Assembly: GCA_041651055.1 (NCBI GenBank)
Contig: JBAZJW010000001.1
Location: forward strand, 177,021 to 241,020
Source: Minisyncoccota bacterium
GTDB lineage: Bacteria; Patescibacteriota; Minisyncoccia; Phycocordibacterales; UBA5272
Direction: 5' to 3'
DNA length: 64,000 nucleotides
The position numbers were made by a program, and so were the translations under genes. Below, one piece after another: positions 14,179-26,016 of the stretch. Position 1 is the stretch's first letter. Each line of letters starts with the position of its first letter. Under the pieces are notes generated by a model. The model was not told the DNA's origin and searched no databases. It worked only from the letters and a program-made list of their open reading frames with translations.

Positions 14179-14207
14179 TCTGTGGGACGAGGTTGGAACA
14201 ATTATTT
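14179..14207 (+). repeat. intergenic motif copy #1
   Basis: TCTGTGGGACGAGGTTGGAACAATTATTT. Confidence 0.5.
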
Positions 14208-14837: not shown

Positions 14838-14867
14838 AGCTGGGACTGTGGGACGATATTCGAACGG
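14838..14867 (+). repeat. intergenic motif copy #2
   Basis: AGCTGGGACTGTGGGACGATATTCGAACGG. Confidence 0.55.
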
Positions 14868-15627: not shown

Positions 15628-15656
15628 GAGCTGGGGCCATGGGACGAAGTTGGAAC
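15628..15656 (+). repeat. intergenic motif copy #3
   Basis: GAGCTGGGGCCATGGGACGAAGTTGGAAC. Confidence 0.55.
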
Positions 15657-16393: not shown

Positions 16394-16422
16394 GAGCTGG
16401 GACTGTGGGACGAAGGTGGAAT
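16394..16422 (+). repeat. intergenic motif copy #4
   Basis: GAGCTGGGACTGTGGGACGAAGGTGGAAT. Confidence 0.55.
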
Positions 16423-16864: not shown

Positions 16865-16894
16865 CAAGCTGGGGCTCTGGGACGACGTTGGAAC
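16865..16894 (+). repeat. intergenic motif copy #5
   Basis: CAAGCTGGGGCTCTGGGACGACGTTGGAAC. Confidence 0.55.
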
Positions 16895-16960: not shown

Positions 16961-17512
16961 ATGAAAGTAAAGCACTTGCAACAATCTGGGGAAAAGAGTA
17001 GTGTTAATAGTCTTAATAAAGACTATACTAAAGATATGCTTACTAAGAATCTTCAGCTTCTTAGCTACCTTACAAAGAAGCACCCTCATGCTTCAGTAAC
17101 TGTGTTAATTAAATTATGCTATTTAGTTGATTTAGTTAGTATTAAAAATGGTAGTGAGAAGATTTCAAATTTTACATATATCAGATACTTTTATGGACCT
17201 TTTGACAAAAGTATCTACACAGAATTAGACCAATTACTTGAAAGTGGTGTATTAATAGCAACACCAGAATACAAAGGCGATTCTGAAACAATAATTTATT
17301 CTTTCAACGAAGAAAAGAAACTAGATACTTCCGCTTTAGATAAAAATGAAATAGCTATTCTTGATGAAGTACTAGATTCACTCGATGGGTATGGAGCAAA
17401 GGCACTTACAGATGTTGCCTACAGTACTGCGCCTATGCAAGCACTTAACGCAACTTTAGGTGGTGACGAAAATCTTGGTGTTGAACTTAATCTAAACTTA
17501 GTAAGAGCTTAA
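16961..17512 (+). CDS. Panacea-domain (DUF4065, SocA/PanA-like) protein, candidate antitoxin
   Basis: VTVLIKLCYLVDLVSIKNGSEKISNFTYIRYFYGPFDKSIYTEL matches the KLLYLaD ... yGPv..vY core of the Panacea domain as I remember it; start set at ATG 16961 downstream of GNAT terminator. Confidence 0.45.
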   Translation: MKVKHLQQSGEKSSVNSLNKDYTKDMLTKNLQLLSYLTKKHPHASVTVLIKLCYLVDLVSIKNGSEKISNFTYIRYFYGPFDKSIYTELDQLLESGVLIATPEYKGDSETIIYSFNEEKKLDTSALDKNEIAILDEVLDSLDGYGAKALTDVAYSTAPMQALNATLGGDENLGVELNLNLVRA

Positions 17513-17517
17513 TTTTT

Positions 17518-18030
17518 ATGCCAATGTCTGACGCTGAACATCTAGCTTGTATTAAGCCACGTTCAGCATACATGGACTTCAGGTCATTAGAAGAATCTAC
17601 AGGTGAAGTTAATGCAAAGTATAAATTACTGACAAAAAAATTAGCAGGTGTTTATTTTTTTCACGTTCTTACAAAGAGTGGGATAACTTATCCTCAAGAA
17701 TATCGCATGGAGATACTCAGAAATGATTGGGAATCGCGTGAGCCCCATCCAAGAGGAATGCACCTTGATGAAGATGCTTCGTATTTAGGTTGTCAGCATT
17801 TCCATATGATGAGTGAAAGAGATGTACTCCTTAAAAGGAAAGAATTTCGTAATGGTTTCAATATAAGTGGGCTGTTAAGTCAGACAAAATTTACAGAAGT
17901 TACAGATTTTATAAAAAGAAGTGGAGGTGTCTACTCAAGAAAATCTAATGTAGTGATTCAAGAAGATATAGAGTCTGTTTTTAATAAAGGGGTTATATCG
18001 GATAAAATAAGAAATAAACTCGGGCTTTAA
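17518..18030 (+). CDS. hypothetical protein, candidate toxin partner of the Panacea-domain gene
   Basis: 170 aa ORF starting 6 nt after upstream stop; no recognisable domain. Confidence 0.35.
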   Translation: MPMSDAEHLACIKPRSAYMDFRSLEESTGEVNAKYKLLTKKLAGVYFFHVLTKSGITYPQEYRMEILRNDWESREPHPRGMHLDEDASYLGCQHFHMMSERDVLLKRKEFRNGFNISGLLSQTKFTEVTDFIKRSGGVYSRKSNVVIQEDIESVFNKGVISDKIRNKLGL

Positions 18031-18049: not shown

Positions 18050-19711
18050 TTAAGATAATCCATCAATATACTGTATTGGTGTTATACCATAATCCCACAC
18101 AGTTGAACTTCTTGAAGGGTCAACTGCCCCATGAACCGCAACACCAAGAACACCATTGTCTTTATCAACTACTGGTGAACCACTCATTCCTTTGTAAATC
18201 GGTTTATCAATTGTAAATCTCTCAATACTAAGTATTCCTATACCGTTACTTTTTGAACTAATTTTTCCTTCGTAACATTGTGGAGTGTCATTGGTTCTAT
18301 ATCCAGGAAATCCAACAACCGTTATAGCCTCTTTAATTTGAGGAGTTTCAATTGTGCTTTTTTCAAGACTAAAGAATGTTACTGTTGTTGGTGCTAATAT
18401 TTTTAAAACTGCTAAATCAGGAATAGAGCTTTGTTTTACAACCTCAGCTTTGTATACGTCCTTAGTTTCAGAGTTGTAAACTTCAACTATTCCACAAGCA
18501 CCATCTATAACATGATAACAAGTTACAAGCCCAACATCTCTCAACATGAAAGCTGTGCCAGTATATCCGACAGAAGTTTTAATTACCCATATTGCACGTT
18601 TCAATTCATCAATTGCACTAACAGGTAAGTCTACTGAGTGTGGGTCTATTAAACGATTAAGCCTATTTTTAAACTTCCTGTATATTGGATCTTTCCCACT
18701 TCTGATAAATTTTAAGAAAGATATTTTCCCATATAAAACTGGTGTTAGATCTGGTTCATCTTGACGACTGGGATGTAATCTAAAATACACGTTCGAGGCA
18801 TTTACTTTTCCAAATCTTTCCCAAGCATATAATATTGTTCTCAATTCTCTAATGTATTTTCTGGAAACATTACTAAATTCATTAACGGTAAGGCCAGTAA
18901 CTTCTTGTCTCATATAATGTCTCTGTAACCTAACTTTTGACTGATTAATTGAGAAATTATTTTTTTGAATGATTGAAGTTAATTTTTGTCCACATGTAAT
19001 TATTCCGTGTGAACGGGAAACAATATCAAGATTTAGTTCTCTAGAGTTTGTAGAAAAAGTAATGTCATCTGCATATCTTGTATATAAACAATTAGTTTCT
19101 TTTGCTAACTTTTGTAAATCATTATCTAATGTATAGCAAATTAGATTTGATATAACTGGAGAAGTGGGGGCTCCTTGTGGAAGCTTACCCTCATAACAAC
19201 AAATTTGAGCAAGTAAAATTGCAACTTCTCTTGGGAAAGAAAAAGCTGTTGATTGAAATAATCCTATTATACGACCTACATGAATTGATGGGAAGAAGTT
19301 TTCTAAATCAATATTAAAAACAAGATTTTTTCTTGCGTGTAGTCTTGCGTTATCTAAAATATCTTTATCTTTACAAAATCCATAAACAGATGATTTTGGT
19401 TTATAAGCTAAGTATAGAATATATGCCAATTTTTTTTGTAAAATTTTAAGATTAGATATTGGTGCTAAAATCTCTCTTTGTCCACCACTTTTTTTCTTAA
19501 TATAAAATTTTGTATACGGAACTGGTTTATCTGGTCTGTAAAGTAGGTAAATTATTGTAGAGTAGTCAACCTCTAAAAGGTCAGCAACGTCTTGTTTGCT
19601 TTTTAGTGCTCTAAAAATTTTTAGAATATCGTCATCACTTCTTGTTAAGGTTGGTTTCATTTCTGTGTAAAAGAGAGAGTGGAATAATTCTTCCTCCTGC
19701 AAAACAAACAC
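18050..19711 (-). CDS. retron-type reverse transcriptase fused to C-terminal trypsin-like (S1) serine protease
   Basis: RT motifs KKKSGGQREI, NARLH (NAxxH), FNIDLENFFPSI, LPQGAPTSPVISN, YTRYADD, RQEVTGLTVN (VTG); C-terminal GTAFMLRDVGLVTCYHV (His), IPDLAVL (Asp), GMSGSPV (Ser) triad; GTG start. Confidence 0.8.
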   Translation of the reverse strand: MFVLQEEELFHSLFYTEMKPTLTRSDDDILKIFRALKSKQDVADLLEVDYSTIIYLLYRPDKPVPYTKFYIKKKSGGQREILAPISNLKILQKKLAYILYLAYKPKSSVYGFCKDKDILDNARLHARKNLVFNIDLENFFPSIHVGRIIGLFQSTAFSFPREVAILLAQICCYEGKLPQGAPTSPVISNLICYTLDNDLQKLAKETNCLYTRYADDITFSTNSRELNLDIVSRSHGIITCGQKLTSIIQKNNFSINQSKVRLQRHYMRQEVTGLTVNEFSNVSRKYIRELRTILYAWERFGKVNASNVYFRLHPSRQDEPDLTPVLYGKISFLKFIRSGKDPIYRKFKNRLNRLIDPHSVDLPVSAIDELKRAIWVIKTSVGYTGTAFMLRDVGLVTCYHVIDGACGIVEVYNSETKDVYKAEVVKQSSIPDLAVLKILAPTTVTFFSLEKSTIETPQIKEAITVVGFPGYRTNDTPQCYEGKISSKSNGIGILSIERFTIDKPIYKGMSGSPVVDKDNGVLGVAVHGAVDPSRSSTVWDYGITPIQYIDGLS

Positions 19712-19828
19712 ACTTACATAGCAACATTTGCCAAAAACACAAGGGCACGTATCATCTCACCTTAGATACATCGTCGCGTATACACAACGAATAGCAATTT
19801 CCACTCTCTCTTTTAAAAAGAAACTTAC
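19671..19828 (-). ncRNA. candidate retron msr/msd-like non-coding RNA
   Basis: 13 nt perfect inverted repeat AAGAGAGAGTGGA (19801-19813) / TCCACTCTCTCTT (19671-19683, minus-strand sense) bracketing about 117 nt directly upstream of and overlapping the RT start; TATAAT box about 25 nt upstream on the minus strand. Confidence 0.25.
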
Positions 19829-19918
19829 CAGTTGTATTATAAAACAATTACATTATTAATCCTAAAAATGTATTATTTACTCATGTGTATCTGTTTAAGT
19901 GAGTTGTATCTTCTGTTA

Positions 19919-20128: not shown

Positions 20129-20452
20129 ACGTAAGGTTCTATATTAAATTTTTGGTAGCAAAACACCGCCATAGAAATAGGAGAACCTTACGAGTAGACC
20201 CACTCCATGGCGGAGCTTTTATCACAAGGTATTAGGTTTGTTTTGTAAACATAGCATAACAGGGTACAAGGAACCTCTCCCTCAGTAAACTTTTGTCGTC
20301 ACAAAAGTTTCTTCGGGCAACTCTCGTGGTTTCTTTTGCTAAAGAAACATCACTCCGAGTATTCGAGTCCTTGCCGTGAAGGACCCAACGTCCTTCACTT
20401 ACCCCAGCTCACACGACAAAAAAGCGTACTTCGTACTCGATGAAAAGTGTGA

Positions 20453-20523
20453 GCTGGGGTACAAGGACTCGAACCTCGATACTCAGGACCAAAACCTGAT
20501 GTCCTACCATTAGACGATACCCC
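20453..20523 (-). tRNA. tRNA-Gln (anticodon UUG)
   Basis: Cloverleaf folds by hand: 7 bp acceptor stem (U1-A72), U8, D arm GTCT/GGAC, anticodon stem TCAGG/CCTGA with loop TTTTGGT (U33, anticodon TTG), T arm CGAGG-TTCGAGT-CCTTG, discriminator G, no encoded CCA. Confidence 0.75.
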
Positions 20524-20813
20524 AAGATGTAAGTTTTTAGTTGATAGTTATTATTTTTTAGTTAATGCAAAATGAAATTCATTGTGCGGCATGCAATACC
20601 AAAAAAATGACTATCAGTTATTAGCTAGGAGAAATTAAATTCAGAGAATTTCTTACCCCTAACTCCTAACCGTAAACTCCTAACTAACCAAAACACAATA
20701 CCATTTTTGAGAGATTTTTGGAAGAGGGAAGGAAAGATTCTCGGTGAGAGCGCTGTCACAGTAAGCTTTTTGAAATTATACACAGCGTCCACAGAACACC
20801 ACGAAAATTTTGC

Positions 20814-21699: not shown

Positions 21700-21762
21700 T
21701 ATGTCATTCCCGCGAAGGCGGGAATCCATTACCTAGATTCCCGCCTTCGCGGGAATGACATA
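21700..21762. repeat. GC-rich twin-hairpin palindrome
   Basis: Two 26 nt perfectly complementary arms TATGTCATTCCCGCGAAGGCGGGAAT / ATTCCCGCCTTCGCGGGAATGACATA separated by 11 nt; each arm is itself a hairpin. Confidence 0.6.
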
Positions 21763-24836: not shown

Positions 24837-25133
24837 TCATTGTGATTGTGTGAACAATCTTTCGAGGTCATCGAGACCATTTACGTGCAGTACTGTTCCA
24901 TCTCTCGTGGTTATGACAATATGAGGAACGACCTTTGCAGGATATTCCTCCATGAGCTCCTTCCATTTTGGTCCTCCGAAGAAGAACTCTTCAGGGACGA
25001 CGTTCTGAAGTCGGTGTTTAAGCAAGCTTTTGGCTCGAGCGCAAAAACCGCACGGCGGAGATATTCTGGTGAAAATCACGACTCCTCGGACCTCTTCGGA
25101 TGAGAGTGCTCTAGGTTGTTCGACGGCAAACAT
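24837..25133 (-). CDS. glutaredoxin/thioredoxin-like protein
   Basis: CGFC (CxxC) redox motif after a beta-strand VVIFTRISPP; start placed at internal ATG. Confidence 0.5.
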   Translation of the reverse strand: MFAVEQPRALSSEEVRGVVIFTRISPPCGFCARAKSLLKHRLQNVVPEEFFFGGPKWKELMEEYPAKVVPHIVITTRDGTVLHVNGLDDLERLFTQSQ

Positions 25134-25167
25134 CTTTTGTGAACCTTTCTGAAAGGAGAAGATTATC

Positions 25168-25210
25168 AACAAGGCGAGGCCTTGTAGCTACAAGGCCTCG
25201 CCTTGTTACC
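25168..25210. repeat. perfect palindrome (twin hairpin) AACAAGGCGAGGCCTTGT-AGCT-ACAAGGCCTCGCCTTGTT
   Basis: Each 18 nt arm is itself the hairpin ACAAGGC-GAG-GCCTTGT; a single arm recurs at 30735-30752. Confidence 0.6.
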
Positions 25211-25542
25211 AGCAAAAGTGCTGACACTTATTCATACCATATTTATATGGAAGCGGGCAAATGGGAAAATATTTAATACAACAATATTTAATATTCAAAT
25301 GAATCAAATGCATTTAATCCAAAAAACTCCTCTAGGCTTGCAGGGGTTCTCTGAATTAGTATTTACCTCTTTGTATTTAATTGAATATTATTACGAGCAG
25401 TCTGTATAAAAAAATAGAACCCCCAAAGTGGAGGTTCAGAATGGTCCTTAAGCATTCAATGTGTGAGGATGTTTCGTCAACGGACGATCCACACAGGTTA
25501 CGGAATGGGCGCCGAATGGCTCGGGCCCAACCACCACGCAGT

Positions 25543-26016
25543 TCAGGAGAACGTGCCCGCAGCGACCGTGCCAGCGTCGTCGGCCTGCTTCAGCGCAACT
25601 TCGTCGGCGCCGGGCTGATCCTTGGCCGTGTCGGTCGTGCCGGCGTCCTGCTGCTGTTGACCTTCGATGTTTTCACCAGCGCCGAACTGCTTTTCGCCGT
25701 GCAAAATATCGGTGGTGCCCGCCGCGGTCTTGGCCACGCCGCCTTGCTGCTGCTGGATCAATTTCGACTCGTCGTTGCCGATCTGGTTCACGGCGCCCGT
25801 GGTGCCTTGTTCCATCTGCGGGCTTTGGCCGGTGGCGGTCACGCTGATGTCGGCAGGTTGCGCGCCGGCGTTCACGGTGGTCTTGTGCGGATCGGAGGCG
25901 GCCAGCGCGTCGGGCTTCACGGCGGAATGGATCACATCGGTGCCGTGCGCGGCGCCAACGGCCTGATTCAAAAACAGCGCACCGAGGATCGAGAGACGCA
26001 ATTTCAAGTGGTTCAT
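25543..26016 (-). CDS. secreted Ala/Gly/Thr/Gln-rich protein encoded in a ~65% GC insert
   Basis: ATG preceded by AGGAG RBS, signal peptide MNHLKLRLSILGALFLNQAVGAAHG; composition sharply different from flanks. Confidence 0.45.
   Translation of the reverse strand: MNHLKLRLSILGALFLNQAVGAAHGTDVIHSAVKPDALAASDPHKTTVNAGAQPADISVTATGQSPQMEQGTTGAVNQIGNDESKLIQQQQGGVAKTAAGTTDILHGEKQFGAGENIEGQQQQDAGTTDTAKDQPGADEVALKQADDAGTVAAGTFS

Follow-up and report, generated by a model that had tools for sequence, protein, structure and literature searches.

A probable type XI retron with a fused HtrA-like protease, and its conserved upstream RNA, in a Paceibacterota genome

Introduction

Is a reverse transcriptase (RT) that is fused to a serine protease in a bacterium of the candidate phyla radiation (CPR) part of a retron, and does the inverted repeat in front of its gene delimit the non-coding RNA (ncRNA) from which a retron makes its multicopy single-stranded DNA (msDNA)? 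The question is raised by a gene on the minus strand (18050..19660) of a 64,000-nucleotide stretch of contig JBAZJW010000001.1 from a Minisyncoccota bacterium, the whole of which is referred to here as the window. An original prediction, made from the letters of this stretch, had described the gene as a retron-type RT fused to an intact trypsin-like protease, with a1/a2-like repeats bracketing a putative msr/msd. The analysis presented here upholds the interpretation of the RT-protease fusion as a retron, with minor corrections to the start codon, the length of the repeat and the position of a2. The locus is very probably an intact, canonical type XI retron, consisting of an ncRNA and a clade-8 RT fused to an HtrA-like protease.

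The type XI retrons were defined as a class within clade 8 by Mestre et al. 2020 (PMC7736814), who found no associated gene cluster for this type and described it as 'lacking recognizable ncRNA modules'. Khan et al. 2024 (PMC10849725), whose criteria for retron ncRNAs comprise an a1/a2 of >8 bp, a priming G and hairpins, tabulate five type XI retrons, three of them with a vector for RT-DNA production, with examples from Sphingomonas, Nitrospira, Ruminococcus, Clostridium and Paenibacillus, and some of their validated ncRNAs belong to 'clade 8, type XI' (PMC10849725). As Toro 2026 points out, the retron covariance-model panel does not yet include type XI, which remains a class without a known mechanism, a solved structure or an RNA covariance model (Toro 2026; Jasnauskaite 2026). 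The original description of the fusion as poorly characterised is thus fair for its mechanism but not for its architecture, which is a named class with some validated ncRNAs. Its occurrence in a CPR genome is also less unusual than had been implied, as RT-protease homologues are annotated in metagenome-assembled genomes (MAGs) of Gracilibacteria and Parcubacteria and the retron table of the census paper includes a type VI retron from Candidatus Levybacteria (PMC10849725). The class itself is already known, being named, modelled in PADLOC and partly validated experimentally, with CPR homologues in public MAG annotations.

The reverse transcriptase and its assignment to clade 8

The gene codes for a protein of 536 aa plus stop codon, for which the best match in PADLOC is RT-Protease_XI (E=1e-171, 570 bits), aligned over positions 3-492 of the 506 of the profile. 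The second and third matches, RT-TIR_XII (1e-126) and RT-Toprim_I-C (3e-109), extend over the RT part only. These three top profiles represent the three clade-8 types, and the 25 best PADLOC matches are all retron RT models. The RT core (18890..19501, minus strand, as are all features of the gene and its RNA), which comprises residues 54-257, is matched by Pfam RVT_1 (E=2.9e-22) and bears the NAxxH, QGxxxSP, YADD and VTG motifs. Translation of the gene located every motif that had been reported, including NARLH (19337-19351), FFPSI (19283-19297), QGAPTSP (19157-19177), YADD (residues 196-199; 19064-19075) and the VTG part of RQEVTGL (18893-18901), as well as the CYHV, PDLAV and GMSGSP motifs of the protease discussed below. 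Among 45 relatives sharing 37-72% identity with the query, the residues N104, A105, H108, V254, T255, G256, Y196, D198 and D199 are invariant or nearly so.

Among the NCBIfam models, Retron_TIR_antiphage scores 354 bits (cut-off 600) and NF038237 (RT-Toprim; cut-off 450) 337 bits, the latter aligned to the RT part only (residues ~30-374). The group II intron RT model TIGR04416 (51.7 bits) and Drt2 (37.6 bits, 1.5e-9) remain far under their cut-offs of 300 and 390, respectively. The 12 best sequence matches in the PDB are retron RTs, headed by Ec67/Eco2 (6e-55, residues 13-286), and the N-terminal ~350 residues yield a Foldseek match to Eco2 (1e-27, 34% identity). By these profile and structure comparisons the encoded enzyme belongs to the clade-8 retron RTs, and the retron-type RT of the original prediction is borne out.

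An open reading frame (ORF) of 553 aa, commencing at a GTG (18050..19711, minus strand), can also be read and corresponds to both the IMG gene call and the protein first described. The NCBI protein MFA5131906.1, encoded on a contig of 775 kb and labelled 'MAG: reverse transcriptase domain-containing protein [Candidatus Paceibacterota bacterium]', is instead identical to the 536-aa form. Because M1 of this shorter form is nearly invariant across the 45-member family alignment, the in-frame ATG at 19660 is almost certainly the true start, so that the longer frame exists but its start was misplaced. An AlphaFold2 model computed on the family alignment has a mean pLDDT (predicted local distance difference test) of 91.

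The fused protease domain

The C-terminal part of the protein contains a trypsin-fold, HtrA-like serine protease domain (residues 368-507; 18140..18559), identified by Pfam Trypsin_2 (E=4.9e-18; residues 385-524 of the 553-aa form). The Foldseek matches of the AlphaFold2 model divide cleanly between its two halves, and for the C-terminal ~200 residues (~350-536) they were, at ~1e-11, to DegP, DegS, DegQ, MucD, the HtrA of H. pylori and Rv3671c of M. tuberculosis. The catalytic residues H383 (18512-18514, in TCYHV), D415 (18416-18418, in PDLAV) and S493 (18182-18184, in GMSGSP) are invariant in the 45 relatives, and the chymotrypsin fold with an intact His/Asp/Ser triad that had been proposed from the motifs is hence confirmed by the profile, the fold matches and the alignment alike.

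No PDZ domain was matched in Pfam at E<=0.1, the protein stops 29 residues past the protease domain, and its N-terminus is formed by the RT, with no signal peptide. Membership of the HtrA/DegP family (MEROPS S1C) was considered and rejected, as the HtrA fold and the triad are present but the PDZ domain and an envelope signal are not.

The inverted repeat and RNA upstream of the gene

A perfect 13-nt inverted repeat had been reported 5' of the gene. The repeat is real but longer, with a perfect core of 17 nt (19815-19799 / 19684-19668) within arms of 25 nt that are complementary at 92% of positions, with 114 nt between them. Shuffling of the 64-kb window leads to an expectation of ~0.03 perfect inverted repeats that are >=15 nt long and whose gap is <=200. 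The a1 arm (19799..19823, perfect core 19799-19815) is paired in both the minimum free energy and the centroid folds and is the counterpart of helices 1 and 2 in the consensus described below, while the last base of the a2 arm (19660..19684, perfect core 19668-19684) is the A that opens the RT start codon. The distal repeat had seemed to lie inside the first 13 codons of the RT because the longest ORF, from the GTG, was taken; with the ATG start this placement proves to be an artefact, and a2 lies immediately 5' of the coding sequence, as in ordinary retrons.

The inter-repeat RNA including its arms folds with -58.1 kcal/mol (z = -6.06), and none of 200 shuffles folds as well. Its layout resembles that of an msr/msd, and the stability that had been anticipated for this segment is thus observed. 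Directly after a1 stands a conserved spacer, AAUUGCU (19793..19799), in which, among 12 close relatives, ATTG and the last T (in DNA letters) do not vary, while conservation of the first A and of the C is >=90%. It is followed by msr hairpin 1, UCGUUGUG / UAUA / CGCGACGA (19771..19790), which is a helix in the RNAalifold consensus (helix 3) and displays compensatory changes from U-A to C-G. The putative msd region (19698..19747) is a variable long stem-loop closed by a conserved UGC...GCA helix. This helix 4 (UGC 19745-19747 / GCA 19698-19700) is invariant in the close relatives and covaries in the distant ones, and the interior of the msd varies in length and sequence, yet folds as a hairpin at each locus. 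Just 5' of a2 lies the box AGGAAGAAUU (19686..19695), which is conserved in the alignment of close relatives.

The AGGAAGAAUU box is likely where reverse transcription would start, given the general retron mechanism and the similar GAAGGAG box that precedes a2 in Ec67. By positional analogy to G15 of Ec67, G19801 is a candidate for the branching G, with G19795 in AAUUGC as an alternative; a 'G-(A)0-2-AUU' pattern recurs in an alignment of 52 sequences. On the same analogy, the msDNA might be copied from ~19690 to ~19760, giving roughly 70 nt. The putative ncRNA matches no Rfam family, even at E<=10. The TATAAT box reported upstream of the proximal repeat is present and perfect (19841-19836, minus strand; 13 nt 5' of the extended a1) and is a candidate -10 box for a transcript of the ncRNA and the RT; a TATAAT in DNA of 31% GC is weak evidence, and the -35 partner, which was not found, is considered below. 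A single minus-strand transcript may be proposed, the first ~165 nt of which would be the msr/msd ncRNA, with the gene (19660-18050) directly after it.

Conservation of the RNA among related loci

A search of genome contigs with the single protein retrieved no relative, whereas an alignment-based search did, and 160 related loci from genomes and metagenomes were assembled, together with eight close relatives at 52-71% identity. For the 81 loci with a full RT-protease, the best ungapped inverted repeat was sought from -330 to +45 around the RT start, retron geometry being defined as a score >=9, arms 90-160 nt apart and a distal arm whose end falls from -60 to +40 relative to the start. Of the 72 loci with sufficient DNA upstream, 52 have a repeat of this geometry, compared with 14 of 360 dinucleotide shuffles and two of 72 coding controls of the same size, and the geometry is shared by 10 of 12 further RT-protease loci from viral contigs. 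The sequences of the arms are entirely different between loci. The common layout comprises a1, a short spacer, a conserved hairpin, an AAUGU/AAGGU box, ACGUGC, a long variable hairpin, the GGAAGAAU box and a2. The spacer differs by subclade (AAUUGCU among close relatives, AUUUAAC or ACUUUGC elsewhere), the msr hairpin is kept in both sequence and structure (CGYUGUG-loop-CGCRRCG), and the long hairpin is closed by UGC...GCA across the RNAs of the family.

The RNAalifold consensus of 12 close sequences contains 27 pairs, 13 of them with compensatory changes, and a covariance model (R1) was derived from these sequences. Within the window, the sense strand reaches 153.9 bits with R1 and the antisense strand 37.4 bits, and the model is significant directly upstream of eight RT-protease genes that were not used in training (L085, L026, L082, L012, L115, L101, L104 and L095). 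It also matches upstream of clade-8 RTs without a protease, among them the locus L138, the protein of which is a full-length RT-Toprim of type I-C (PADLOC 3e-172). In the 26 non-training matches, aligned by means of R1, 90.2% of the cells pair, compared with 60% in column shuffles and 32-52% with slid partners, 25 of the 27 pairs have changed on both sides, and the covariation score is 0.69 against 0.10-0.16 in the slid controls. Helices 1 and 2, formed by a1 and a2, display compensatory changes at all 16 pairs, and the msr hairpin has changes on both sides in six of its eight pairs. Judged by these alignments, the upstream element is a conserved structured RNA that is placed, oriented and laid out like a retron msr/msd, and its RNA family spans type XI as well as at least a portion of type I-C. 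The repeat, the stable fold, the family-wide geometry and the covariation all agree with the a1/a2-like bracketing of a putative msr/msd suggested at the outset.

Two further observations were made among the related loci. About a dozen full-length RT-protease retrons (L170-L195, IMG/VR) are situated on viral or proviral contigs of 4-195 kb, and (pro)phages can therefore carry type XI, like Ec67. In addition, a 528-aa clade-8 retron RT (L129:862-2448) is preceded by the ncRNA (L129:685-844, R1 E=1e-13), and no Pfam family was matched by its C-terminal ~190 aa, which the protease, TIR and Toprim profiles cover only in part; this protein may represent an uncatalogued effector fusion.

Genomic context

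The retron and two genes that converge on it occupy a trough in GC content (0.31-0.34 at 17-20 kb, against ~0.41 for the window). The first of these genes (16961-17512, plus strand) codes for a protein with a Panacea (SocA-like) antitoxin domain (Pfam 6.5e-10), with weak PADLOC matches to PDC-M19A and DarG, and is followed by a gene (17518-18030, plus strand) for a protein of 170 aa with no family match. The two probably constitute a toxin-antitoxin pair within the same low-GC islet. On the other side, 630 bp upstream of a1 and on the same strand, lies a tRNA-Gln (20453-20524, minus strand), the only Rfam family in the whole window to reach gathering score. Its 3' acceptor end pairs with a site 32 nt downstream of the tRNA in a perfect 15-nt inverted repeat (20400-20414 / 20447-20461), which may act as a hairpin in processing or termination or represent an att-like remnant at the islet border.

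A homologue with 72% identity (P0002) is encoded on a 51.5-kb contig (ENA ERZ1426853), where the upstream genes, for proteins of 97, 185, 193 (SNase) and 253 aa, match those of the window in order, orientation and size, and where a type I restriction-modification system takes the place of the toxin-antitoxin pair downstream. The arrangement looks like a retained retron within a variable defence islet, and the gene order around P0002 suggests that related Paceibacterota have a defence hotspot of variable content here. The neighbours in other relatives include Abi_C, DpnII, a LexA-like peptidase and a resolvase. In two of the closest relatives, a gene with an Abi_C domain adjoins the RT-protease gene in the same orientation, upstream in L165 (1970-2818) and downstream in L166 (2257-3012). 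Clustering of the 780 flanking ORFs of the 81 loci revealed no conserved partner gene, the largest family being present at three loci, and Abi_C did not emerge as a conserved partner family. The absence of a separate conserved effector gene, which characterises type XI, is accordingly observed here.

A repeat of ~28 nt, AGCTGGGACTGTGGGACGAnGTTGGAAC, occurs in five plus-strand copies (14180-14199, 14838-14865, 15629-15656, 16395-16422 and 16867-16894), one in every intergenic space between small genes that are unrelated to one another (a 184-aa protein of unknown family, Vut_1, MOSC, GNAT and Panacea), at a spacing of 470-790 nt. A diverged inverted copy is located beside the tRNA-Gln (20385-20410), and the layout of the array is cassette-like. 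An integron attC was considered for these repeats and rejected, as their core does not fit GTTRRRY/RYYYAAC. No integrase or recombinase that would explain the islet and the array was detected among the ORFs of 7-24 kb scanned against Pfam, and the repeat is absent from all of the related loci that were fetched. Further upstream, between ORFs of 96 and 209 aa, is a perfect palindrome of 27 nt with a loop of 9 nt, TATGTCATTCCCGCGAAGGCGGGAATC (21700-21726 / 21736-21762), each arm of which contains a CCCGC-GAAG-GCGGG hairpin, resembling repetitive extragenic palindromic (REP) elements. The GC content rises to 0.53 at 25001-26000, compared with ~0.41 for the window, in a segment where neither an rRNA nor any other Rfam family was matched.

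Proposed mechanism and alternative explanations

A possible mode of action is provided by the sister retron Eco2, in which the branched msDNA of a trimeric complex keeps the Toprim domains caged until it is broken down by the phage nuclease DenB (Eco2 2026; PMC12916289); the same study notes that other fusion retrons are without a structure or mechanism and suggests a similar msDNA-dependent regulation for them. By analogy, the RT at this locus would take as its primer the 2'-OH of a G located at a1's 3' edge and copy the msd into an msDNA of ~70 nt. The msDNA-RNA hybrid would remain bound and hold the protease in an inactive state, perhaps within an oligomer like that of Eco2, phage activity that degrades or modifies the msDNA would free the protease, and the freed protease would cut cellular or phage proteins and so abort the infection. 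This entire msDNA-gated release of a fused HtrA-like protease is plausible, though we consider it slightly less than evenly probable. The broader notion, that type XI retrons are nucleic-acid-gated proteases in which msDNA restrains the HtrA-like domain in an Eco2-like or HtrA-like trimer and phage-induced damage to the msDNA unleashes proteolysis as the abortive-infection output, is put forward more tentatively still. If true, it would make these the first retrons with a proteolytic effector mechanism, one that works even in an ultra-small CPR episymbiont, and the ncRNA model common to type XI and some type I-C retrons would constitute an RNA family that is missing from the retron covariance-model panels.

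Several points weigh against the reading of the locus as an intact, functional type XI retron. The assignment is known here from sequence and the host is an uncultured CPR bacterium, and no phage defence by type XI and no substrate of the protease are reported in the literature searched. A scan for sigma-70 consensus promoters and terminators found neither an acceptable -35 element to go with the TATAAT nor an intrinsic terminator downstream of the gene. Other subclades have an A or a U in place of the G of AAUUGC, so that the branching G is not fixed. As the alignment of non-training sequences was fitted to R1, its pair counts are biased towards the structure of the model. The pTM (predicted template modelling score) of the AlphaFold2 model is 0.59, and the placement of the RT relative to the protease is accordingly not confidently predicted. 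Lastly, E. coli genomes contain the Ec67 msr/msd sequence, with 100% identity, next to the gene annotated as the Ec67 RT, but R1 scores only 7.2 bits (E=0.58) at this correct site, and a short msr-only model, R2, which is weak as its RNAalifold consensus has just five pairs, gave no Ec67 match. Because neither RNA model detects the Ec67 RNA, the resemblance on which the candidate branching G and the length of the msDNA are based is visual only.

The alternative explanations differ in which part of the locus they reinterpret. Protease fusions are also known among some of the defence-associated RTs (DRT) and RTs of the unknown groups (UG), and weak matches to the group II and Drt2 models were obtained, which might point to an RT of another lineage, be it a group II intron, a diversity-generating retroelement (DGR) or a UG/Abi/DRT enzyme with a fused protease. 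Those matches, however, lie far beneath the cut-offs, retron RTs make up all of the top 25 PADLOC models, with RT-Protease_XI leading, as well as the 12 best sequence matches in the PDB, and the retron signatures NAxxH and VTG are invariant across the family. This origin has practically no likelihood, and group II intron, DGR and DRT identities were rejected on the PADLOC ranking and the NCBIfam scores. The repeat and hairpins might instead be a regulatory structure in the 5' untranslated region, through which translation of the RT is controlled or attenuated without abundant msDNA, or the DNA might be made on infection only, as reported for type VI. Since a2 runs right up to the start codon, pairing of a1 with a2 would hide the ribosome-binding region, there is no single column in which the branching G is conserved, and a study of type VI reports retrons without constitutive build-up of msDNA (10.1101/2025.10.22.683967). 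A ribosome-binding site within the a2 region is, however, normal for retrons, and the order of a1, msr hairpin, variable long hairpin, a2 and RT is the retron layout. This layout is common with a type I-C locus, type I-C including the msDNA-producing Ec67, and some clade 8 type XI ncRNAs predicted by the same a1/a2 criteria have been validated (PMC10849725), so that a regulatory structure appears very unlikely.

The role of the protease is open to another interpretation, in which it would not be the killing effector but an activator that cleaves a latent pro-effector site-specifically. Trypsin-like proteases fused to immune sensors do activate adjacent effectors with a metallo-beta-lactamase (MBL) fold or other latent effectors (PMC12799240, PMC12642450), an Abi_C gene stands beside the RT-protease gene in the two close relatives mentioned above, and a substrate might be encoded elsewhere on the chromosome. 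In these modules, however, the mechanism needs an adjacent co-evolving effector gene (PMC12799240, PMC12642450), whereas no family of flanking ORFs occurs in more than three of the 81 loci, PADLOC treats RT-Protease_XI as a single-gene system, Mestre 2020 found no type XI gene cluster, and the neighbours on the 3' side converge from the opposite strand and resemble a separate Panacea toxin-antitoxin pair; a pro-effector is therefore considered unlikely. The locus might also be an inactive relic, intact in sequence but devoid of expression or function, as CPR genomes are small and the scan found neither a canonical promoter nor a terminator. Against this, the ORF is unbroken with all catalytic and family-invariant residues present, the ncRNA retains a perfect 17-bp a1/a2 and every conserved box, and the 72%-identical orthologue, apparently syntenic in the related contig, suggests retention under selection. 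Decay of the locus is thus highly improbable, and the preferred reading remains that of a complete type XI retron.

The modest addition to what is known of this class is a covariation-supported consensus for a predicted type XI ncRNA and its link to type I-C. Both fit the idea of one msr/msd-RT cassette with interchangeable effector domains. A Paceibacterota genome of ~0.8 Mb appears to keep a complete single-gene retron in a small variable defence islet, where its only annotation is that of a generic reverse transcriptase. The general view of retrons is unchanged, and the locus offers a compact candidate (~1.8 kb) for studying the role of the fused protease.

Comparison with known systems

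Among the known systems, the locus is closest to the type XI retrons (Mestre et al. 2020; PADLOC RT-Protease_XI), with which it shares a single ORF coding for an RT and a C-terminal trypsin-like protease, a near full-length profile match, an a1/a2-bracketed ncRNA directly upstream and no accessory gene. It is distinguished by its host, a CPR (Paceibacterota) MAG, and by an identity of ~35-45% to most catalogued members, the nearest relatives (52-72%) being encoded on unannotated metagenomic contigs; nothing differs in kind. The type XII retrons (RT-TIR) share the RT clade and the single-gene fusion and give the second-best profile (E=1e-126, RT part), but carry a TIR domain at the C-terminus where a protease is found here.

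The nearest solved structure is that of Eco2/Ec67 (type I-C; PDB 9I2F, 9LM3), a single-polypeptide RT-effector of the sister clade with its ncRNA upstream. Its effector is a Toprim nuclease that cuts tRNA, in contrast to the protease of the present locus, and its trimeric, msDNA-caged mechanism is known, while for type XI no mechanism is established. A type I-C assignment was rejected here, as there is no C-terminal Toprim and both RT-Toprim_I-C and NF038237 align over the RT part alone. At the RNA level, the first msr hairpin of Ec67 (GGUUGUG-AAU-CGCAACC) is similar to that of the window (CGUUGUG-UAUA-CGCGACG), and its boxes AUUUG, which follows the branching G15, and UAAUGG, where termination takes place (U51/G52), visually resemble the RNA of this family.

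The HtrA-family proteases (DegP, DegS, DegQ, MucD and Rv3671c/MarP) have the chymotrypsin fold and the His-Asp-Ser triad in common with the C-terminal domain over ~200 aligned columns, at an identity of 15-22%. The fusion protein differs in lacking a PDZ domain and a signal peptide or membrane anchor, and in being a cytoplasmic fusion with an RT. A trypsin-like protease fused to an immune sensor is also found in the protease/pro-effector modules (MBL pro-nuclease; Avs, Hachiman, Lamassu, DRT and a St85-like retron). These modules always include an adjacent, co-evolving effector gene, whereas none is conserved at this locus or in the 81 related ones, a difference that sets the RT-protease apart as a single-gene system.

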